Assembly: GCA_035281445.1 (NCBI GenBank)
Contig: DATEEA010000083.1
Coordinates: 6,625 to 70,624, forward strand
Source of the DNA: Candidatus Polarisedimenticolia bacterium
GTDB lineage: Bacteria > Acidobacteriota > Polarisedimenticolia > JACPZX01 > DASXTC01
Reading direction: 5' to 3'
DNA: 64,000 nucleotides
Below are positions 15,277 through 50,286 of this stretch, piece by piece. Below the pieces are notes generated by a model. It was given only the letters and a program-made list of their open reading frames with translations, did no database searches and was not told the origin of the DNA. The number at the start of each line of letters is the position of its first letter. The stretch's first letter is position 1. The position numbers and the translations under genes were made by a program.

Positions 15277-16398
15277 TCAGCCGGTCAGGACGGCCGCCAG
15301 CAGCGTGAGGTCGTCGGCCGGCGGTCTCCCGGCGCGGAACTCCGTCTCGGCGGCCAGCAGCCCTTCGAGGAGCGGGGCGCCTCCCTGAGGGTGCCGGCGA
15401 ACGACGTCCCGCAGCCGCTGGTCGCCGAAAAAGGCGTGATCGGTGGAAGCCTCGGTGAGGCCGTCGGTGTACAGGAGCCACCGATCCCCCGGGCCCGCCG
15501 GGACGCTGCGCCGGACCCAGGACGCACCGTCGAGCGCGGGCGACACGATGGGGCCCGTGGGCGGCAGCTCCACGGCGGGGCGCGAGTCTCCCCACAGGAT
15601 CCCCGGAGGGTGCCCGGCGTTGACGTAGTCGATCCGGCCGGCCGCGGCGTCCACGCAAAGGCAGATCAGGGTGACGAATCGGCCGGGGCCGAACGGTCCC
15701 AGGGCCGAGGCGATCGCCGCCGCCACCGCCTCGGGGGCCTGGCCGCCGCCAATGGCGCCATGGAAGGAAGACTTCACCAGCCCCGTCAGCATCGCCGCCG
15801 ACCCGCCGTGGCCCGACACGTCGGCCACCATCATGGCCGCCCGCCCGCCGCCGCAGAGGGCGTAGTCGTAGAGATCGCCGGCCAGCTCGGTGCAGGGCCT
15901 CAGCCGGCAGGACAGCGCCACCCCGGCCACGGTGGCCTCGGCCGGCGGGAGGAGGCTCTGTTGGAAGGCCCTGGCCTCCGACAGCTCGTCCTGCAGCCGC
16001 CTGATGTGGGCGCGGTTCTGCTCGCGCAGCGCGCGCTGCTCGAGGCAGCGCTCGACCAGGGTGCGCAGCAGCTCGGAGTCGAACGGCTTCTGGATGAAGT
16101 AGAAGGCGTTCTCGCGGATCGATCGGATGACCTTCTGATCCACGTCGGTCATGCTGCCGGTCATGAGGATGGCGTCCAGGCCCGGGACGGTCCGCTTGAG
16201 GCGCCCCAGCAGCTCGAATCCGTCGATGTCCGGGAGCCGGATGTCGAGGATGGCCAGGTCCGGCTCCAGGCGGGTCGCGGAGGCGAGCGCCTCCCTGGCC
16301 GAGGTGAACGAGGCCACGCTGTGCCGCGGCCCCAGCACGCGCTGCACCGCCCGCAGCATTCCCGGCTGGTCGTCGACGACCAGGATCCTCGCCTTCAC
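15277..16398 (-). CDS. Response regulator: N-terminal REC receiver with a C-terminal PP2C/SpoIIE-type phosphatase output (RsbU-like)
   Basis: The REC domain reads MKARILVVDDQPGMLRAV...DLAILDIRLPDIDGFEL. The C-terminal PP2C region contains ADVSGHGGSAAM and YTDGLTEA. The start overlaps the stop of the upstream kinase gene. Confidence 0.8.
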   Translation of the reverse strand: MKARILVVDDQPGMLRAVQRVLGPRHSVASFTSAREALASATRLEPDLAILDIRLPDIDGFELLGRLKRTVPGLDAILMTGSMTDVDQKVIRSIRENAFYFIQKPFDSELLRTLVERCLEQRALREQNRAHIRRLQDELSEARAFQQSLLPPAEATVAGVALSCRLRPCTELAGDLYDYALCGGGRAAMMVADVSGHGGSAAMLTGLVKSSFHGAIGGGQAPEAVAAAIASALGPFGPGRFVTLICLCVDAAAGRIDYVNAGHPPGILWGDSRPAVELPPTGPIVSPALDGASWVRRSVPAGPGDRWLLYTDGLTEASTDHAFFGDQRLRDVVRRHPQGGAPLLEGLLAAETEFRAGRPPADDLTLLAAVLTG

Positions 16399-18077
16399 GC
16401 GCCCTCCTCGGCGGACCGGCCCGGCCTCGCGCGGGGGATGAGCAGCCGCACGCGGGTCCCCCGGCCCACCTCGCTCTCGATGGCCATGTCGCCGTTCATC
16501 TGCCAGACCAGCGAGCGGCAGATGGAGAGACCCAGGCCGCTCCCCTCCGCCTTGGTGGTGAAGAACGGCTCCTGGATGCGCGGGAGGTCGGCCGGCGGGA
16601 TGCCGTGGCCCGTGTCCTCAACCACGATCTCCACGCCGGAGCCGTGGGAGCGGGCTCGCACGGACAGCCTTCCTCCCGACGGCATCGCCTCGCGGGCGTT
16701 GTTGATCAGGTTGAACAGGATGCGCTCGATGTCGCTCTGGCCGCCCGCCAGGGCCGGGAGCCCCTCGGGCACTTCGAGCACCACGCGCACGCCGCGGCGG
16801 TCCAGGCCGTCCTGGAGGATGGCCAGCGTCCCGCGCACCGCGCGGGCCAGGTCGATCCCCGAGGGGCCCTGGCCCGCGTGGCGGGCGAAGGCCAGCATCC
16901 CCCCGAAGATCCTCCGGCAGAGCTGCAGCGACTCCTGCACCTGCGCCAGGTCCTGGACGAGCTCGGCCGCGTCCAGCCGGCCCTCCTTCAGGTCGGAGAG
17001 CATCTGCTGCACGAGGGGGAGCGCCGACCCCAGGGCGTTGTTCACGTCGTGGGAGACGCCCCGGGCCAGATCGGCCATGGCGTGCTTGCGCTCCGCCTCC
17101 AAAATCCTTTCCTGGAGCGAGAGGGAGCGGTGCACGTTGTGGATGGCGATGGCGGCCTCGGAGCGGAACCCGTCGAGGAGCTCCGCCTCGTAGGGGCCGA
17201 AGCTGCGGGGATGCCGGGAGGCGATCCGCAGCGCCCCGATGGCCGTCCCGCGGGCCACCAGCGCCGCCAGCAGCACCGCCCCGGCGGGAGCGCCGGGTTC
17301 CACGGCTCCGGCCGGGCCGTCCAGCAGCGGCGACAACGCCTCCGGCTCCGCTCCCAGCCAGGCCCGCCAGCGTCCCTCGACCCGGTCGAAGCCGAAGATC
17401 TCCCCGCGCGCCAGGAGAGCCAGCCCCTCGGGTGAGAGGGCCACCCTGGCTCCGATGCGCGCGCTCTTGCCCTTGTGCCAGGCGATCTGCTCCGCCTCCA
17501 GCCGCAGCGCCGGCTCGGCCGCGTCCAGGATGAGCAGCGCCGAGGAGTGGTCGTAGCGGGTGAGAGAGCGCAGCCCGTGGAGGATCTGGTAGAGGAGGTC
17601 CTTGGGACGCAGCTCCTCCATGATCTTGCGATCGATGCGGGACCGGACGTCGATGATCCGTTCACGGTCGATCCGCTCGATGGCCTCTGTGAGCGCCACG
17701 GCCAGCTTGCACAGCGCCCGGCCGTCCCCCTTCTGGAAGGGAGCGCTTCGGGACAGGGCCAGCGCGCCCCAGGAGCGCCCCCGGCGCCGCACCGGAGCCA
17801 GCAGGAAGCCGCCGGGGACACGGGGATGGGTCTCGCGGATGAACGCCGCCAGCAGCGCTTCATCCCATGGCGCGCCCGCGGGGAGGGAGAAGGTCACGCG
17901 CGCCGCCGGCTCGCCGTGGGGCAGCCACGCGGCGCAGCCGGCGTCGGCCCGGAAGAACTCCCGGGCGGCGCGCAGCGTGTAGCGCATCGCCGCTCCGGTG
18001 TCGCGCATCGGCTTGAGCGCGGCGCCGAGCGATTCCAGCCTGACATACAGGTCGAGCCGGCGCTGGTCGGTGGGCAT
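16395..18077 (-). CDS. Sensor histidine kinase with GAF domain(s) (HisKA + HATPase_c)
   Basis: A 560-aa ORF. It has an H-box (MADLARGVSHDVNNALGSA) and N/G boxes (LFNLINNAREAM, VEDTGHGIP, GSGLGLSI). The upstream region resembles GAF. It is translationally coupled to the REC-PP2C gene. Confidence 0.85.
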   Translation of the reverse strand: MPTDQRRLDLYVRLESLGAALKPMRDTGAAMRYTLRAAREFFRADAGCAAWLPHGEPAARVTFSLPAGAPWDEALLAAFIRETHPRVPGGFLLAPVRRRGRSWGALALSRSAPFQKGDGRALCKLAVALTEAIERIDRERIIDVRSRIDRKIMEELRPKDLLYQILHGLRSLTRYDHSSALLILDAAEPALRLEAEQIAWHKGKSARIGARVALSPEGLALLARGEIFGFDRVEGRWRAWLGAEPEALSPLLDGPAGAVEPGAPAGAVLLAALVARGTAIGALRIASRHPRSFGPYEAELLDGFRSEAAIAIHNVHRSLSLQERILEAERKHAMADLARGVSHDVNNALGSALPLVQQMLSDLKEGRLDAAELVQDLAQVQESLQLCRRIFGGMLAFARHAGQGPSGIDLARAVRGTLAILQDGLDRRGVRVVLEVPEGLPALAGGQSDIERILFNLINNAREAMPSGGRLSVRARSHGSGVEIVVEDTGHGIPPADLPRIQEPFFTTKAEGSGLGLSICRSLVWQMNGDMAIESEVGRGTRVRLLIPRARPGRSAEEGA

Positions 18078-18113
18078 CGAGCGGGTCTCCGCCGGGCTCG
18101 CGGCGGAGCCGGG

Positions 18114-19262
18114 TCAGCGCCCAGTATACAGGCGGCGGCCGGCGCCCCGGCCGCGCGCGGGCCGGGGCGCCGCCCTGCGAAGGGCCTCGATCAGGGCGGC
18201 GTCCACCAGCCCGCGGGGGTTCCCCTCGTGCGCCAGGGCGTGATCCTTGCGGAAGGCATCCACCGCTTCGATCGCCTCCTGATCGAAGACGCCCCATGCC
18301 GCCATGAAGTCCCGCAGCCTGGCGTTGTGCTCGTCGAAGAGCGCCCCGAGCCGGGTGGGATCGCTGCGCAGCAGCGAGCGGTCGAAATCGAGCCTGGGAG
18401 GCTCGGGGATCGGCGGCTGGCCCTTCCTCCAGTAGCCCGCGGCGTGCAGGAGCCGCTTCAGCTCCACCACGTCCGGACCCTCCACGGCGGAGAAGGACCG
18501 GTGCCCCAGCCGGCGCGACGTGGCGTAGTAGACGCGCTTCAGCTCTCCGACCGGCTCCGGGTGCTCGCCCACGTCGATGGAGACGCTGATGTGATCCCCG
18601 GCGCGTCCCGGGTCGCGCGGATCGGCCACCCGCAGCGCCGCCGACTGGAGGTTCCCCAGCCTCTTGTCGCCGCCGGCCCTCTGCCCCGCCTCCAGCGCCA
18701 GGACGAGCCGCTCGGCGAGCGGCATCCCCGATCCGGCGGTGGACTCGAAGCGGCCGGCCACCGCGTCCACCACCTCCCGCCCCACCAGGATGTTCCCCTG
18801 GACGGTGTACCCCTGGCCCTGACGGCTTCCGGCCCATCCGTTGGTCTCCTTGCCGGTGAACGCGGCGGTCCGTCCCTGCATGTCGATCAGCCCGAGCTGG
18901 CGCCGCTCACGCCCCCGATCGTCCGCCAGGAGACGCTCGATGACCTCCTGGGGCGCCACCTCCCGCTCCATCAGGTCGAGCGCCTGTCGCCCGTACTCCA
19001 CCACCGTCCAGGCCTGCGTCGCCGCCGCTCCCACTCCCGCGCGGACCCAGGGGACCGCCCGCCCCACGAACGGCACGCGGGTGGTGACCGCCACGCCGCT
19101 CTCGCCGGTCGCCGCGTCGATGGCGCAGATGGAGAACGTGGCATGGAGGAGTCCCGACGGATCCGCGGACCGGTTCTCCCGCGCCGCGGCCCGTTCATGG
19201 ACCCCCTGGGGGCCGGCGGCCAGCGCGAGCAGGAGGGACGCCGCCAGGACGATGCGGCTCAT
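18114..19262 (-). CDS. DUF1028-family (Ntn-hydrolase-like) secreted protein with a C-terminal peptidoglycan-binding-like domain
   Basis: It has a signal peptide (MSRIVLAASLLLALAAG), a TFSICAID N-terminal-nucleophile-like motif typical of DUF1028, and a C-terminal PG_binding_1-like segment (ELKRLLHAAGYW...DAFRKDHAL). The start is placed at the MSRIVL codon (the track ORF begins at 19337). Confidence 0.6.
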   Translation of the reverse strand: MSRIVLAASLLLALAAGPQGVHERAAARENRSADPSGLLHATFSICAIDAATGESGVAVTTRVPFVGRAVPWVRAGVGAAATQAWTVVEYGRQALDLMEREVAPQEVIERLLADDRGRERRQLGLIDMQGRTAAFTGKETNGWAGSRQGQGYTVQGNILVGREVVDAVAGRFESTAGSGMPLAERLVLALEAGQRAGGDKRLGNLQSAALRVADPRDPGRAGDHISVSIDVGEHPEPVGELKRVYYATSRRLGHRSFSAVEGPDVVELKRLLHAAGYWRKGQPPIPEPPRLDFDRSLLRSDPTRLGALFDEHNARLRDFMAAWGVFDQEAIEAVDAFRKDHALAHEGNPRGLVDAALIEALRRAAPRPARGRGAGRRLYTGR

Positions 19263-19269
19263 CGAGGCC

Positions 19270-19899
19270 TCACCGCCGCTCCAGCGCGCGCTGCATCGCG
19301 CTGCGTGTCTCTTCGATGACGTCCACGACCGGGCCACCGTAGCGCAGGGGAGCGGGCAGGTCGTGCTCCCAGCGCGCGGCGCCGTCGAAGAGTGCCACGA
19401 CGTCCCAGACCACGAAGCCGGGAGGCAGCGGCTCGTCGAACCCGTACCGCTGAGGGTGCTCGCTGACCGCGCGGACGATGTCCTCCGAGACGATGCGATC
19501 GGGATCCCAGTACTGGACGGCGCGCGGGTCGTCGACCAGCTTCAGGACGCTGCTCATGGGGGGAGCGAAGTCTGTGGCCAGCACGGGCTCCCAGACGACG
19601 TGCGCGCGGATCCTGGCGCGGGGGAACGCATCCAGCAGCTCGTCCAGCGCGGAGGCCCCCCGCACGCAGACCGGTCACGTCGGGGAGAGCATGACCAGCA
19701 GGCGCGCATCCTGCCCGGGCGCATTGAACGCGTCGAGCAGCAGGGGCAGCGCGCCCTTCTCCAGCCGCGTCAAGGGGGGCTGGCCCGGCGGAACGCTGCG
19801 CGGGGCGAAGACCATCCACGCGCCGATGCCCGCGCACACCGCCAGGGTGCCGGCGGCCGCCGCCAGGGCCACCCTCCCGATCCTGCGCCTGCCTCTCAA
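19270..19899 (-). CDS. Membrane-anchored thioredoxin-fold thiol:disulfide oxidoreductase (TlpA/DsbA-like) with an in-frame TGA at 19675-19677, preceding the PVC of a U-P-V-C motif: candidate selenoprotein
   Basis: The track ORFs 19675..19899 and 19270..19665 are in the same frame, separated only by a TGA. The read-through product is MRGRRRIGRVALAAAAGTLAVCAGIGAWMVF (TM anchor) ...ARLLVMLSPT-U-PVCVRGASALDELLDAF.... This is a beta1-strand followed by UxxC at the start of helix alpha1, i.e. the thioredoxin active-site position. A GC-rich hairpin starts ~10 nt 3' of the UGA (candidate bSECIS). The TTG start overlaps the upstream gene's stop as TTGA. Alternatives are a pseudogene or sequencing error. 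Confidence 0.45.
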
Positions 19900-44921: not shown

Positions 44922-47900
44922 TCACCTCCCGTCCGGCGCGCGCGTGCCGCGCTTTCGGGGCGGAGCGCCGAGTCGCCAGAAGATCTCGGGCTCGATGGTG
45001 AGCGGATAGGCGTCCGCCTCGTCCCAGGCCCCCAGGATGGCGCTCTTGACGGCGTCCATCCGGCGCTCCACCAGCCCCGCGTCCTCGGTGTCGGCGACGT
45101 ACGACAGGCGCAGCACCGCCGGCGCCTTGCGCAGCTCGGCCAGCAGCAGATCGAGCCTCGGCCGCCACTGGGGACGGATGCCCGTCGCGTCCGGCTCGAA
45201 GGCCGCGTCGGAGAGATCGATGGCCACCACGCGGTGGATGGACGCACCGAAGTCGATCGTGAGCGCCTTGCCCCGGGTGGCGCGCTTGACCTGGACCTGA
45301 TCGGTGGACATGCGGTAGCCGCTGGGGAGGGTCCGGTCGTCGAGCTTCAGCACGAAGTTGCTGCCGCGCGCCTCGTGGGGCGTGATGGCGCAGGTGATGT
45401 GATACCGCCCGTGCGCGTCGGTGGCGGCCTGCAGGCCTCGCGCCGTCGCCAGGCGCACGCCGGGCAGGCCGGCCTCGCCTTCGTCCTGCCGCTGGTTGCG
45501 ATTGGCGTCGTCGAAGACCTTGCCGGTCACGTCGGTGCAGTCGAACGTCGGGTCGGGGACCAGGCGGACGGTTGCCGTCGCTTCTCCGGACAGGGCGCCT
45601 CCGGTCGCCCCGTTCACCACCAGAGCGCTGTTGACGTGCTCCCCCTCGCCCACGCCGGCCCCCACGGCCAGCAGCAGCTTCAGGGTCCGCGCCTCGGTGG
45701 CCGCGATGACCAAACCGCTCCAGGTCAGCTCGCGGCCGGCGATGGACGGCTCGGCCGGAACGCCGTCCAGGAGAGCCGACCCCTGGACGTAGCTGAAGCC
45801 GGCCGGGAAGCGGTCCACGATGGCCGCGTCCGTGAGGAGCATGCCCGACAGGTTGCTCACGGTGATGACGTACGGGATCAGTTGGCCGCGCATCACGTTG
45901 AGCGCCGGAGTGGTCTTGGAGACGGCCACCGAGCCGCTGAGCTGCGGATCGAGAGGGATGTGGTTGTTGAAGATCTGGCTCGATCCCGGCGGCAGGCTCC
46001 CGTCCAGCGTCAGGTGCAGGTGATGGGTGGTGCCCGCGCTGCGGGGAGGCACCCCCGCGCCGGGAGCCAGCTCCGAGGGCTGCACCTCGCAGTGCTGGCC
46101 CGTGGCGGGGATGGCGTCGTCCGGGCCGCCCGGGCAGGCCGGAACCGAGAACGCCGGCGTGGATCCGTCGGAGGCCGGCGGGATGATCTGGGAGCCGCCC
46201 GGAAGGAAGGTCGCTCCCGGAGGCGCCGTGACCGCGATGAGGTAGTCGCCGCCGGGCGGGCACGCCGGATCGCTGAAGTTGATGTCGAACTTGTAGTAGC
46301 CGTCCGCCAGAGTGACCTGCCCTTGCTGGGCCGCGTCGTCGAAGCAGGCGGCGGGCAGCGGCGAGGCCGCGCCGGAGTCCAGCAGGCTCAGGGAGGCGCC
46401 GGGGATCGGCGTGCGCGCGACCGCGTTGTAGATGACGCCGTTGGGCTGGATGGGAAGGTTCAGGCCCTGCACGCTGGCGCCGGACGTCACCAGGATGCCG
46501 CTGATGCGCTGCAGTCCGTTGGTGAAAGCCGAGGCGGCCCGGCCGAGCATCGCGGTGGCGGGGCCCGCCCCCGGCGCGCGGAACCGGATCTCGTACTGCG
46601 CTCCGCTGGCGTCGTTCGGCTCGACGCCGATGATCCGGTAGTCGCCGTTTGCGTCGGTGATCGCCGAGTGCAGCGGCTGGCCGTCGCGGTGCAGGTCGAC
46701 CGCCCAGCCGGCCAGGGAGCGCTCGCCTGCGTCCCGAGACTGGTCGAAGTCGGCGTCGTGCCAGACCGAACCGCTCAGCACGGCCACGCCGGGGATGCCG
46801 CCCACGACGATGGAGACGCTGGCGCTGGCCGTCTGGGCCGGCGTGTTCCAGGCCACCACGCCGGTGTTGGTGACCACCGTGCCCTGCGCGAGGCCGGGAT
46901 CCAGGACGGCCCTGAAGCGAAGCACCACCTGCTCGCCCGGCTCCAGCGGCCCGCTCACCGCGGCATGGTTCGCGGTGATGGTGGAGCCGGCGAAGCTCAC
47001 CCCCGCCGCCGAACCGTCCATCGTGGCGGAGCCCGGGACGTAGGCGAGCTGGGACGGGTCGAGCGTGTCGGTGATGACCACGTTGAGGGCGGGCACGGCC
47101 CCGATGTTGCTTACCAGGACGACGTACTCGAGCTCCGCCCCGGGCAGCGCCGCCCCGCCGGCGACCACGGCCACCTGTTTGGCGATGGAAAGCTGCTGGC
47201 CGTCGCCCACGACCACCACCGTGGGCTCGGGACCGGTGGCCGGGTTGCCGTCGCCGTCGGTGGGCAGGTCGGGCAGCTCGGCGCTTCCCACGACGGCCTG
47301 GTTGCTGATGAGCGTGCCCGCGGGGGTGCCCGGGTCGACGCGCAGGTCGAACTGCACCACGGCCGCCCCGCCCGGGGAGATGGTGCCGGCGCCCGGGCCG
47401 GGCAGAGGCGGCGTCAGGTCGGAGGAGCTGATGTCGATGCCCGAGGCGAGCGGGAAGACCCCGCCGTCCGGCTGGCCCACCGGCAGGCCGTTCAGCAGAG
47501 TGGAGTTCGTGACGTACGTCGTGTTCGCCGGGACCGTGTCGGTCAGCACGATGCTGGTCGCGGGGATGGCCGCGGAGTTCTGGACCGTGATGGTGTAGCG
47601 CAGCACGTCCCCCGGATCGACGACGCCCGGGGAGCCCAGATCGACCTGGAGCGCGGCTCGCTTGTCCGCGAAGAGCAGCGGGAAGTTGCCGACGATGTCG
47701 CGGGTTGGATCCCCGGCGATCGGGGTGTCCGGGTCGTCGGAAGGGTGGTCGACGATCCCGCTGCTCGTGGCGCTGACGAATCCCTGGTTCGAGATGATGG
47801 TGCCGTTGACGACGTTCGGGTTGACCACCACGTCGAACGTGATGGTAGCCACGTTGGTGGGCGGGCCCGAGGCTCCGGCAGGCATGGATCCCGGCGTCGG

Positions 47901-50057
47901 GTCGGCGGGCGAGTGGATGAGCATCCCGCCCACCAGCGGCGACAGGCCGCCTGAGTCGGGGACCGGGCTGCCGTTCAGAGTCGTGCTGCCGGCGACGTAC
48001 GTCGTGTTCACCGGCACGGCATCGCGCAGCACGACGCCGGTGGCGTCTTCGTTGCCGATGTTCCTGACGGTGATGGTGTACCGCAGTGTCTCGCCCGCCA
48101 GCAGGACGGCCGGATCCCCCGTCAGGTCGGTCGAGGTCTTCTGCACCAGGAAGGAGGGGAACGAAACGATGGTCACTCTCGTCGGGTCCTCGTCGCCGGG
48201 GACCAGAGGATCGGCGGTCCCGTTGACGCCGGGGTCGTCGCTCAAGGTGAAGAGCGCGCCGCTGTCCAGGCGGAGCGCCGACTGGTTGGAGACGACGGTG
48301 CCGTTGGCCAGAGTGGAGGACAGCGTGATGTCGAACTGGATCACGACCTCGCCGGCGGCGGGCAGGCTCAGGTTCCGGACATCGAGGAGGCCCGTGCCGT
48401 CGGCACCGCCCGTGCTGCTGGTGGCGCTGATGTCGGCGCCGGCCGGCCAGGCGACCAGCGTCAGCGTGCCCGGCACGAACGCCGGCTGGGCGTTGAGGGC
48501 GTCCAGCTCGTCGACGATCCTGAAGTTGCTCAACGACTGGTCGGTCGCGCGGAAGCGCAGGGTGTACCGGAGAGTGTCACCCGGCGCTGCCGTCGTGGCG
48601 GGCGACGCGCCGCTGGTGAGGTCGGCGACGGTCTTCTCGAAGAAGAAACCGGTGAGCGCCACGGCCACGGTGTGCGCGTCCTGGTGGTCCTCGATCGAGG
48701 TCGTGCCGTCGGTCAGCGTGCGGGTGTAGGCCTGCCGATCCGGGTTGCTGTCGTCGCCGTTGAACCACTGGATGGCGCCGGCGATGTTGGTGAGCGTGGC
48801 GCCGTCCTGCGTGTCGGCGTCGAGCTGGGTCCGGTAGCGGAGGATGAGCCGCTCTCCCGGCCCGATGGTGGCGGCCGCCGTCAGCAAGGTGATGTCGAGG
48901 CGGCAGTTCGGCGCGCCGCTCCAGCTCATCACGTAGTCGGCGCCGGGGCTGAGCGGCCCTTTCCCGGGAACCGGGGTGACGCCGTCGGCGGCGAAGACCT
49001 GGGCGCTCTGGATCTGGGGCGTCAGGTCGCACATGCCGCCCGTCGCGCCGTCCGGGAAGTGATCGCGCAGCGAGACGTTCCAGGCGTCGCTCAGCCCGTC
49101 GTTGCGGACGTCGATGGCGAAATCGCCCCACTGGCCGAGGTTCATCGTCGCCGGGCCGGTCTTGTCCACGATCAGAAGAGGCGCGGCGATGGTCAGCGGC
49201 GCAGTGATGCCCCACTCGCCCGGCAGCGGCTCGTGAAAGACGTTGTCGATGAGCCGGCCGAAGTCCCACTTGGCGGTGTTGATGAACTGGGTCCCCGGCG
49301 CGTTGACCGGCGTGTCCTCCAGCACCACGGTCAGCTCGATGACGAACTGCCGCCCGGCATCCACGACCGGGATGTTGTCGAAGGTGAGGAAGCCGCCGAC
49401 GTTGGAGAAGGTGTGCGGAACGTCCGTGCCGTCATCGAGCCAGCGGGCGGTGTGGCCGACGTAGGTGAGATCCACGCCCGTCTCGTTGAGGTCGTCCCAG
49501 ACGGTGATGCTGTGCAGGTCGTTGGGCGACCCCTGGAAGTCGATGACCGTCCCGGTGGCCGGATCGAACAGGACCGGAATGATGAGCGTCCAGGTGAAGG
49601 GGACGCCGATGGTGGCCACCGCGGGGCCCGGCGGATTCTGCTTGTTGATCTTCTCGACGGGGATCAGGAGGTTCTGGCACCCCTCCTGGATCGTGCTGGA
49701 GGAGCCGTTGGTGAACCAGATCTTGTGCCCGTGAACGGAGCTGCACGCCATGTTCCCCGTGTGCACCACGTTGTCGAAGATGATCAGCCAGCGCTCGTTG
49801 GTCTGGCCCGGCTGCGTGAAGAAGCTGAAGTTGGTGGTGAGTGGGTTGGACGCCGGGAAGTTGCGGATGGTGCAATTGCCGTCGATATTGACGTTCGGCG
49901 GCGGGACCGGATTCACGAAGCCGTCGATCAGACCGCCGAAGGCCTGGCAGGCGAGCGCCTCGGTGGATCCGCCGGCGAGCACGCCGAGGAGCGGCATCAC
50001 CAGGAGGAGAGCCCTCCTGAGTGTGGCCTTCGATCCGCCCCCCTTTTTGCAGCCCAT
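44922..50057 (-). CDS. Giant (~1711 aa) secreted surface protein with DUF11 (conserved repeat domain) and SdrD-B/Cna-B-like repeats
   Basis: It has a signal peptide (MGCKKGGGSKATLRRALLLVMPLLGVLAGGSTEALA) after a GAGGA Shine-Dalgarno. Multiple DUF11-type units occur (TLRYTITVRNIGNEDATGVVLRDAVPVNTTYVAGS; VLRYTITVQNSAAIPATSIVLTDTVPANTTYV; LEYVVLVSNIGAVPALNVVITDTLDP), alongside SdrD-B-like units (VSGSVWHDADFDQSRDAGE...DANGDYRI; VTGKVFDDANRNQRQDEGE...DAHGRYHI). Confidence 0.7.
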   Translation of the reverse strand: MGCKKGGGSKATLRRALLLVMPLLGVLAGGSTEALACQAFGGLIDGFVNPVPPPNVNIDGNCTIRNFPASNPLTTNFSFFTQPGQTNERWLIIFDNVVHTGNMACSSVHGHKIWFTNGSSSTIQEGCQNLLIPVEKINKQNPPGPAVATIGVPFTWTLIIPVLFDPATGTVIDFQGSPNDLHSITVWDDLNETGVDLTYVGHTARWLDDGTDVPHTFSNVGGFLTFDNIPVVDAGRQFVIELTVVLEDTPVNAPGTQFINTAKWDFGRLIDNVFHEPLPGEWGITAPLTIAAPLLIVDKTGPATMNLGQWGDFAIDVRNDGLSDAWNVSLRDHFPDGATGGMCDLTPQIQSAQVFAADGVTPVPGKGPLSPGADYVMSWSGAPNCRLDITLLTAAATIGPGERLILRYRTQLDADTQDGATLTNIAGAIQWFNGDDSNPDRQAYTRTLTDGTTSIEDHQDAHTVAVALTGFFFEKTVADLTSGASPATTAAPGDTLRYTLRFRATDQSLSNFRIVDELDALNAQPAFVPGTLTLVAWPAGADISATSSTGGADGTGLLDVRNLSLPAAGEVVIQFDITLSSTLANGTVVSNQSALRLDSGALFTLSDDPGVNGTADPLVPGDEDPTRVTIVSFPSFLVQKTSTDLTGDPAVLLAGETLRYTITVRNIGNEDATGVVLRDAVPVNTTYVAGSTTLNGSPVPDSGGLSPLVGGMLIHSPADPTPGSMPAGASGPPTNVATITFDVVVNPNVVNGTIISNQGFVSATSSGIVDHPSDDPDTPIAGDPTRDIVGNFPLLFADKRAALQVDLGSPGVVDPGDVLRYTITVQNSAAIPATSIVLTDTVPANTTYVTNSTLLNGLPVGQPDGGVFPLASGIDISSSDLTPPLPGPGAGTISPGGAAVVQFDLRVDPGTPAGTLISNQAVVGSAELPDLPTDGDGNPATGPEPTVVVVGDGQQLSIAKQVAVVAGGAALPGAELEYVVLVSNIGAVPALNVVITDTLDPSQLAYVPGSATMDGSAAGVSFAGSTITANHAAVSGPLEPGEQVVLRFRAVLDPGLAQGTVVTNTGVVAWNTPAQTASASVSIVVGGIPGVAVLSGSVWHDADFDQSRDAGERSLAGWAVDLHRDGQPLHSAITDANGDYRIIGVEPNDASGAQYEIRFRAPGAGPATAMLGRAASAFTNGLQRISGILVTSGASVQGLNLPIQPNGVIYNAVARTPIPGASLSLLDSGAASPLPAACFDDAAQQGQVTLADGYYKFDINFSDPACPPGGDYLIAVTAPPGATFLPGGSQIIPPASDGSTPAFSVPACPGGPDDAIPATGQHCEVQPSELAPGAGVPPRSAGTTHHLHLTLDGSLPPGSSQIFNNHIPLDPQLSGSVAVSKTTPALNVMRGQLIPYVITVSNLSGMLLTDAAIVDRFPAGFSYVQGSALLDGVPAEPSIAGRELTWSGLVIAATEARTLKLLLAVGAGVGEGEHVNSALVVNGATGGALSGEATATVRLVPDPTFDCTDVTGKVFDDANRNQRQDEGEAGLPGVRLATARGLQAATDAHGRYHITCAITPHEARGSNFVLKLDDRTLPSGYRMSTDQVQVKRATRGKALTIDFGASIHRVVAIDLSDAAFEPDATGIRPQWRPRLDLLLAELRKAPAVLRLSYVADTEDAGLVERRMDAVKSAILGAWDEADAYPLTIEPEIFWRLGAPPRKRGTRAPDGR

Positions 50058-50286
50058 GGAGTCCTCGCTCCGCTCGCCGGGCGTCGCCGCCGCGCTGGGA
50101 AGGGACCGAGGCCATCCACGTCGTGGACTGGATTCCGGCGGTCCCGCCGTCCTGGGGCCCTGGGGCCCTTTAGACCGGTGACTTTGCGTCGCCATCTTTC
50201 GATGGCTTTGCCCTTGTCAGAATCTTCGATGTCAGAGGATCAGATTCGCAGCGTGTCGTGATCTCCTGGTCGCCGTGTCATGGCCG
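50058..50286 (-). promoter_or_regulatory. 229-nt intergenic region with a lower-GC segment and a TGTCAGA direct repeat, probably the promoter of the giant adhesin/OmpA-barrel gene pair
   Basis: The plus strand reads ttgcccttgtcagaatcttcgatgtcagaggatcagattcgcagcgtgtcgtga, with TGTCAGA twice 15 nt apart. It is the only sizeable non-coding gap inside the 20-kb co-oriented cluster. Confidence 0.25.

Follow-up and report, generated by a model that had tools for sequence, protein, structure and literature searches.

A gene interrupted by a conserved in-frame UGA in Candidatus Polarisedimenticolia represents an apparently uncatalogued family of predicted membrane-anchored, thioredoxin-like selenoproteins in Acidobacteriota

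The 64,000-nucleotide stretch of contig DATEEA010000083.1 considered here (GenBank assembly GCA_035281445.1, positions 6,625 to 70,624; hereafter the window, whose numbering is used for the gene under study) derives from a metagenome-assembled genome (MAG) of Candidatus Polarisedimenticolia and carries on its minus strand two adjacent open reading frames (ORFs) that are a single gene interrupted by one TGA. The corresponding UGA at 19675-19677 very probably encodes selenocysteine (Sec), and the gene, at present annotated wrongly, is a genuine selenoprotein gene. Comparison with its relatives establishes one gene with a conserved TGA, pairs of Sec and Cys forms, a covarying selenocysteine insertion sequence (SECIS) hairpin and the fold of the product; a metal-related role of the family is offered as a hypothesis drawn by analogy. 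We are confident that, taken as a whole, a selenoprotein gene with its SECIS, an anchored thioredoxin-fold product and a family link to metals best explains the data.

The first ORF is initiated by TTG and runs from 19899 to 19675, the second continues in the same frame from 19665 to 19270 (its stop codon being 19272-19270), and a single in-frame TGA (19677-19675) lies between them, a layout recognised in the first-pass annotation and borne out by a check of the ORFs and their translations. The read-through product is MRGRRRIGRVALAAAAGTLAVCAGIGAWMVF...ARLLVMLSPT-[TGA]-PVCVRGASALDELLDAF..., with the stretch after the TGA also given as PVCVRGASALDELL. A search across 5.8 billion proteins recovered 151 homologs, around 90% of which are 120-145 residues long and start at (M/V)RGASAL, three codons past the TGA position; about ten are full length. 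Seven full-length homologs read SPT-C-xx-C, with Cys aligned exactly at the TGA column, and three read SPT-W-PVC. The one of these three that was examined at the DNA level has TGA at this codon, its W having arisen because the gene caller used a code in which TGA specifies Trp. A scan of GTDB with one genome per species yielded 169 relatives, and among the best 80 of these loci the Sec codon is TGA in 79 and TGC in one. A recurrence of this kind, with the flanking peptide also retained, goes far beyond chance. The relatives are almost all Acidobacteriota (Polarisedimenticolia, Pyrinomonadaceae, Bryobacteraceae, Terriglobia, Blastocatellia and Thermoanaerobaculia), the others including one Eisenbacteria bin and one Anaeromyxobacter bin. 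One Sec form with a MerT-like neighbour (L067, DATMNZ010000044.1) was placed, probably wrongly, in a Candidatus Saccharimonadales bin; the contig has an acidobacterial look. The frame upstream of the TGA evolves as coding sequence: all 82 sequences are free of in-frame stops over the 39 codons before it (the other two frames contain stops in 57 and 53 sequences), entropy at codon positions 1, 2 and 3 is 1.08, 0.77 and 1.68, and the conserved peptide xPxGQxPL...FN...VRVxVxLSPT leads up to the TGA. The same split geometry is found in two other loci with different adjoining genes.

An exhaustive profile search of 1.84 billion representatives placed the size of the family at 1,510 clusters (50% identity) at E <= 1e-3, or 487 at E <= 1e-10. 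An N-terminal extension is present in only 16 of the best 150 cluster representatives, about 89% being truncated at the Sec codon. Thirteen full-length forms were newly seen, with Cys at the Sec column in ten, W (meaning TGA) in one, an SxxC motif in one and both redox residues lost in one; the first-pass annotation had proposed a comparison of this column, and Cys does occupy it in the seven full-length homologs of the protein search and in these ten. The two divergent forms read SPSEKRS (P0177, both redox residues lost) and SPT-S-VK-C (P0239) with the rest of the domain conserved, and some members of this kind may have a non-redox role. A further variant, L011 (around nucleotides 2400-2650), reads SPT-U-A-F-G, with Gly in place of the resolving Cys but with both TGA and hairpin kept, so that it is possibly a one-Sec variant or a decaying copy.

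The hairpin GUGCGG/GGGGCCU/CCGCGC starts 10 nucleotides 3' of the UGA (nucleotides 13-31, counting the U of UGA as 1) and takes the form N-U-G-C-R-G-G-G / GGC / C-U-C-Y-G-C-A-N across the family. Over 81 distinct Sec-form sequences, 94.4% of the cells in its 7-bp core (14-20/24-30) are paired, compared with 40-66% when the 3' arm is slid; the observed covariation was reached by none of 500 shuffles, and RNAalifold recovered the same stem. At pair 17/27, 31 sequences have G-C and the other 50 have A-U, without exceptions or intermediates. The 5' member of this pair falls at the second position of an Arg (CGG) or Gln (CAG) codon and the 3' member at a silent Ser wobble (UCC/UCU). A neighbour-joining tree from which the hairpin-encoded residues had been left out requires, by parsimony, at least six independent G-C/A-U double switches. 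Synonymous sites are likewise frozen: the Gly codon of the loop is GGG in 84 of 84 sequences, compared with 17% for the other Gly codons of these genes, and the adjacent Ala codon is GCC in 79 of 84 (28% elsewhere). The published model of the bacterial SECIS (bSECIS) has four constraints, on the apical loop, the stem, the distance from UGA to loop and a minimum free energy (MFE) of <= -7.5 kcal/mol (PMC13188914); the family hairpin agrees with all four, showing a GGC loop, a stem of 7-8 bp, a distance of 17 nucleotides and an MFE at or below the threshold in 78 of 81 sequences (-12.4 kcal/mol in the window). The bacterial SECIS that the first-pass annotation placed some 10 nucleotides past the UGA is thus conserved and covarying. 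Folding of the sequence after the UGA, also suggested there, behaved differently in its two forms: the single-sequence fold of 71 nucleotides in the window was not significant (z = -1.08), whereas the comparative analysis and the bSECIS constraints supported the hairpin. The lone fold is uninformative because the genome is 71% GC, and the significance of the hairpin is visible only in the comparative data. An Rfam search of the window gave no match at the UGA site.

Among the four Cys forms for which DNA was available, three use other codons in this region and have no hairpin (MFE -0.5, -6.0 and -3.6). The fourth, P0043 (TGT; L088, 2040-2087), lies in a MerR-MerT cluster and has an intact hairpin (MFE -12.1), which suggests that Sec gave way to Cys very recently and left a fossil SECIS behind. 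In comparison with the E. coli fdhF-type bSECIS (the Zhang and Gladyshev consensus as summarised in PMC13188914), the family element is similarly a coding-sequence hairpin about 10 nucleotides after the UGA, with G at the first loop positions, 17 nucleotides from UGA to loop and a stable stem, but its sequence is unrelated and is unusually invariant across classes (UGCRGGGGGCCUCYGCA). This invariance is explained by overlap with the conserved peptide C-L/V-R/Q-G-A-S-A, which the Cys forms retain too. The hairpin thereby offers a natural experiment in SECIS evolution, in which the choice between an Arg and a Gln codon goes hand in hand with a silent Ser wobble, synonymous positions are held fixed and the hairpin decays after a change from TGA to TGY, and it also provides a ready-made search pattern.

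Neither Pfam nor NCBIfam models matched the read-through sequence at E <= 10 or any of 21 individual family members, and the family profile gave no thioredoxin-like match against PDB sequences; a weak Pfam match of one member to the SelB winged-helix model (E = 0.096) is noise. The fold was modelled on the closest full-length Cys form, P0043, which is 44% identical to the window protein, with a 64-sequence alignment. The model (predicted local distance difference test score, pLDDT, 94.6; predicted template modelling score, pTM, 0.88) has a transmembrane helix at residues 2-21 followed by an α/β domain, in which a strand at 55-61 (TRLLLLL) leads into Cys65-x-x-Cys68 at the N-terminus of a helix at 66-81. 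This arrangement of a strand followed by a CxxC helix corresponds to thioredoxin active-site geometry and matches the first-pass placement of the UGA at the redox position of a UxxC motif between strand β1 and helix α1. The top structural neighbours of the model are all reductases of the TlpA/ResA/CcmG type. The model therefore supports a thioredoxin-like domain of this type in the window protein, with U/CxxC at the strand-to-helix junction. The affinity to TlpA/DsbE suggested earlier stands at the level of structure but finds no counterpart in Pfam, NCBIfam or PDB sequence models, even with the family profile. With TlpA, ResA, CcmG (DsbE) and ScsD-type reductases the family shares no more than 7-18% sequence identity; it has Sec in place of the first Cys and invariant motifs of its own, namely SPT-U-xx-C, GASA and, within the thioredoxin-like domain, WEP, YWDP and VWD.

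The N-terminal membrane anchor predicted in the first-pass annotation corresponds to a 19-residue hydrophobic segment (residues 12-30, mean Kyte-Doolittle value 1.83) preceded by five Arg. Across the family the net charge is +2.3 before this segment and +0.85 after it, and some homologs have lipoprotein signal peptides in place of the anchor (LAGC, LAAC, AAAC). Given this positive-inside bias and the lipobox variants, the domain is predicted to face the periplasm; the topology is read from sequence, and we regard an extracytoplasmic location of the thioredoxin-fold domain as highly likely.

To characterise the genomic context of the family, flanking ORFs of 87 non-redundant loci were clustered and then subjected to hidden Markov model searches. 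A MerT-like membrane protein of about 125 residues, with an invariant CCLPxxPF motif and one more invariant Cys, is encoded directly upstream on the same strand in 70 of the 87 loci. Its matches (MerTP, 2.6e-8, and MerT, 6e-6, in NCBIfam; Pfam MerC, 0.0036) all fall under the curated cut-offs. A MerR-family regulator occurs in 52 loci and is about equally similar (~1e-30) to ZntR, MerR, CadR/PbrR and CueR. Three of its Cys are conserved at 96-98% (residues 82, 117 and 132 in the representative); Tn501 MerR uses 82, 117 and 126. Between these two genes, 27 loci encode a small YFxGCP protein that passes the cut-off of NF049942, the 'DF family (seleno)protein' (L019, L024-L026, L029-L036, L042, L051, L052, L059-L062, L064, L066, L068 and L072 are among them; e.g. 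L072, 695-1072, plus strand). Only Cys forms of it were seen in these loci. The DF family was first reported in 2025 from a Desulfobacterota genome without functional context, and its occurrence here provides a conserved operon context. In L092 a MerR-MerT(PF02411)-HMA-zf_CopZ cluster stands upstream of the MerT-like gene and the selenoprotein gene, and in L088 the Cys form P0043 adjoins MerR-MerT; the MerT and MerR proteins of these two loci are bona fide by Pfam. Recurrent downstream neighbours were sought across the loci, and none was found. A radical-SAM gene and a PTP-NADK/BLH-phosphatase-like gene lie near the selenoprotein gene in L091 (4705-5793 and 3162-3725) and L092 (4614-5690 and 5687-6391), and this pair may constitute a second recurrent association.

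These neighbourhoods, the main clue to function and one beyond the reach of the first-pass annotation, invite comparison with MerP. In most members the order is merR ... merT-like followed by the selenoprotein gene, which thus takes the position of MerP, and both proteins have an extracytoplasmic domain with an xxC chelating pair. In contrast to MerP, however, the family has a thioredoxin-like rather than an HMA/ferredoxin-like fold, is membrane-tethered and carries Sec; L092 encodes an HMA protein as well, no MerA is seen nearby, and the window copy lies outside such an operon.

We propose that SelB carrying Sec-tRNA(Sec) would bind the hairpin, upon which the UGA would be read as Sec and translation would continue; the dependence of decoding on SelB is presumed here. 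A single N-terminal helix would hold the 209-residue product in the cytoplasmic membrane, N-terminus inside, leaving a TlpA/ResA/CcmG-like domain with Sec75-Pro-Val-Cys78 at the start of helix α1 exposed on the outer face. This selenol/thiol pair might undergo redox cycling via a selenenylsulfide, or it might chelate a thiophilic metal. For most family members the protein would be the product of the last gene of a merR-(DF-family)-merT-like operon, in the place that MerP occupies in classical mer operons, and its ancestral role might have been the capture of metal and its hand-off to the CC-motif transporter, or the maintenance of the transporter cysteines in a reduced state. Given the MerP-like operon position, handling of soft metals of the Hg(II) type appears the most likely ancestral role. 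The window clade would have left the mer-like operon and might act as a more general extracytoplasmic selenol:disulfide reductase. A bolder form of this proposal, which we advance only tentatively and consider rather unlikely as it stands, is that the family is a selenium-based, membrane-tethered replacement for or partner of MerP, in which a periplasmic selenolate-thiolate (UxxC) site would take up Hg(II) or a different soft metal and hand it on to the divergent CC-motif MerT-like transporter under the control of the three-Cys MerR sensor, with the window copy as a derived, operon-independent paralogue. If true, selenium and mercury handling would be connected in a way not recognised before, through a system widespread in soil Acidobacteriota, a phylum that ranks among the most abundant in soil and mostly lacks MerA. 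The operon of MerR-type sensor, MerT-like transporter and DF-family (seleno)protein at any rate makes it possible to test whether soil Acidobacteriota deal with soft metals by means of selenium chemistry.

Several observations weigh against parts of this interpretation. The three annotated mer-type neighbourhoods have no MerA (pyridine-nucleotide-disulfide oxidoreductase), no recurrent cluster of that kind was found, and no electron donor of the DsbD/CcdA type is adjacent. The window copy and its nearest relatives (L003, L005, L008-L013 and L091) have no MerT-like or MerR-like neighbour, nor does such a gene occur anywhere in the 64-kb window. The metal hypothesis therefore transfers to this clade only by homology, and a metal-linked function of the window's own copy is quite possible, if somewhat short of an even chance. 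The fold of the window protein is taken from the model of a homolog with 44% identity. The canonical cis-Pro is not conserved across the family, most members having GEHDRxS without a Pro at that place. The cis-Pro-like PPGF of the first-pass annotation (LPPGF before VVWD) does occupy the right topological place before strand β3, but its Pro is conserved only in the window's clade, which has LPPxF before xxWD. With respect to Sec itself, ARAGORN found no tRNA-Sec in the window or in the related loci, regular-expression probes found no SelA, SelB or SelD signatures in 681 kb of related DNA, and no selA, selB, selD or tRNA-Sec lies within the window. All family sequences come from MAGs or metagenomes.

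The alternative that fares best accepts a selenoprotein but sees in it purely a periplasmic thiol:disulfide reductase of the TlpA/ResA/CcmG type that does not handle metal directly, with targets such as apocytochromes, Sco or CoxB and with mer-like neighbours that are co-regulated under thiol stress. We consider this a serious contender, to which we would give roughly one chance in three. The structural neighbours of the model are all reductases of this type, the window's clade is devoid of nearby metal genes, and regulators of the MerR family also sense oxidative or thiol stress, the regulator here having sub-threshold matches to SoxR and NmlR. On the other hand, in the 70 loci counted above the gene comes straight after that of a CC-motif MerT-like transporter, where MerP would stand, and the regulator has the highly conserved three-Cys metal-site pattern. 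Its operon partners are MerR- and MerT-like rather than cytochrome-maturation or Sco genes; neither of these, nor DsbD/CcdA genes, recur in the neighbourhoods, and the cis-Pro typical of such reductases is absent in most members.

A much less probable alternative to the Sec reading, which we rate as distinctly improbable, is that the UGA is decoded as another amino acid, either as Cys by a SelB-like factor with a selC*-type tRNA-Cys(UCA) or as Trp or Gly by a suppressor tRNA. Such tRNAs exist: selC*-type tRNA-Cys(UCA) has been proposed for some Deltaproteobacteria (Mukai et al. 2017, as reviewed in PMC7609411), and unusual allo-tRNAs have been reported in Acidobacteria. The failure to see Sec machinery in the window and the related DNA would also be in keeping with it. 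However, TGA ends most genes of the window, whose G+C content is 71%, and as the ordinary stop codon of the genome it excludes a global reassignment. Moreover, the hairpin fits the SelB-type bSECIS consensus, the selC* system is described in other phyla, Acidobacteria are documented Sec users, and the prevalence of TGA with occasional Cys forms that lack the hairpin is the classical Sec/Cys signature. When the window was scanned for further genes split by a TGA, just two candidates emerged and both were false, one due to adjacent genes sharing a frame and the other to an antisense frame.

It is still less probable, to the point of being hardly tenable, that the locus comprises two genes, a small membrane peptide that ends at the TGA and a soluble protein that starts at a GTG three codons later. 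Gene callers and NCBI do annotate it so, and the GTG is present. Yet the P-V-C codons between TGA and GTG are conserved, including the resolving Cys, the Cys-form homologs are single polypeptides, and strand β1 and the CxxC helix α1 of one thioredoxin fold would be divided between two chains; in most loci, moreover, the 'start' codon reads CTG or TTG (Leu). Conservation of the TGA together with the coding nature of the upstream frame excludes this reading, and with it those of a sequencing error and a pseudogene. The notion of an error in sequencing or assembly, or of a mutation that has recently turned the gene into a pseudogene, which the first-pass annotation had listed as a possible objection, has nothing beyond the bare presence of a stop codon in its favour, and is refuted by the identical TGA in independent assemblies of the locus (ENA, Logan and NCBI), its retention in 79 of 80 species and purifying selection on both sides of it.

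The family appears to be absent from current catalogues. A 2026 review of prokaryotic selenoproteomes with the database BSepDB recognises about 111 families, each tied to a domain model (PMC13188914), and those with UxxC on a thioredoxin fold include the thiol:disulfide interchange (PF13098), Prx-like (PF00578), Redoxin (PF08534) and DsbA-like (PF01323) families, as well as the thiol-disulfide isomerase-like (cd02966), SaoT (NF040730) and HUIPC-motif (NF047660) families (PMC13188914, Table 1). The family described here shares with them the UxxC motif on a thioredoxin-like fold, the existence of Cys homologs and a bSECIS directly downstream of the UGA, but none of their Pfam or NCBIfam models matches the window protein at E <= 10; this comparison covers families defined by Pfam or NCBIfam, those known only by CDD (e.g. 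cd02966) or PANTHER identifiers falling outside it. In the literature we found no description of an Acidobacteriota SPT-U-xx-C family. The window gene thus apparently founds or belongs to an uncatalogued family of thioredoxin-fold selenoproteins. Public databases systematically split such genes into a peptide of 65-75 residues and a 'hypothetical protein' of about 130 residues, and the C-terminal ORF of the window is accordingly annotated by NCBI as a 131-residue hypothetical protein of a Candidatus Polarisedimenticolia MAG. A family model would put right thousands of such records and add to the selenoproteome known for Acidobacteriota, a phylum that published catalogues treat as selenoprotein-poor.

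The features of the gene are collected in Table 1. The TTG start is preferred because it yields an Arg-rich tail, MRGRRRIGR, of a kind that also precedes the transmembrane segment in homologs.

Table 1. Features of the selenoprotein gene, in window coordinates.
Feature	Position	Strand	Basis or remark
Complete selenoprotein gene, 209 codons including Sec75, plus stop codon 19270-19272	19270..19899	-	One frame; conserved on both sides of the TGA in ~80 species
Probable TTG start, overlapping the TGA stop of the upstream Tricorn/PD40-amidohydrolase gene	19897..19899	-	Choice of start inferred
Alternative GTG start, the one picked by gene callers	19870..19872	-	
Predicted N-terminal transmembrane signal-anchor, residues 12-30	19810..19866	-	Hydrophobicity, charge bias, helix 2-21 of the homolog model
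UGA, very probable selenocysteine codon, residue 75, first residue of the U-P-V-C redox motif	19675..19677	-	TGA in 79/80 loci; Cys in homologs
Resolving Cys codon UGC, residue 78, of the UxxC motif	19666..19668	-	Kept in all Sec forms examined except L011 (U-A-F-G)
SECIS hairpin, nucleotides 13-31 from the U of UGA	19647..19665	-	Pair counts, covariation, four bSECIS criteria
Conserved 7-bp SECIS core	19648-19664	-	
Apical loop GGC of the SECIS	19655-19657	-	
Predicted extracytoplasmic thioredoxin-like (TlpA/ResA/CcmG-type) domain, from the conserved PxGQxPL linker	19273..19791	-	

In the window the gene sits between a Tricorn/PD40-amidohydrolase gene and a DUF1028 gene, and no neighbour is conserved within its clade. 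Its TTG start overlaps the TGA stop of the former, a gene of 1106 residues (TTGA, 19899-19896), and the overlap noted in the first-pass annotation is indeed present; the translational coupling deduced from it may hold here but does not extend to the family, orthologous loci having unrelated neighbours. An ABC-F ATPase gene accompanies the amidohydrolase gene upstream. Directly downstream and tightly packed on the minus strand (15277-19262) are genes for a DUF1028 protein (E = 1.2e-65), a GAF-HATPase sensor kinase and a response-regulator-SpoIIE phosphatase. The whole arrangement is operon-like in appearance and is not conserved at orthologous loci. Elsewhere in the window, the only Rfam match is a c-di-GMP-I riboswitch (RF01051, 76.9 bits, E = 2.3e-13) at 50134-50222 on the minus strand, at the 5' end of an ORF (44922-50195, minus strand) for a 1757-residue protein with DUF11, SdrD-B-like, DUF7619 and CarboxypepD_reg repeats, which from its sequence looks like a giant surface adhesin. 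As the riboswitch overlaps the mechanically called ATG, the true start of this ORF is probably located further downstream.

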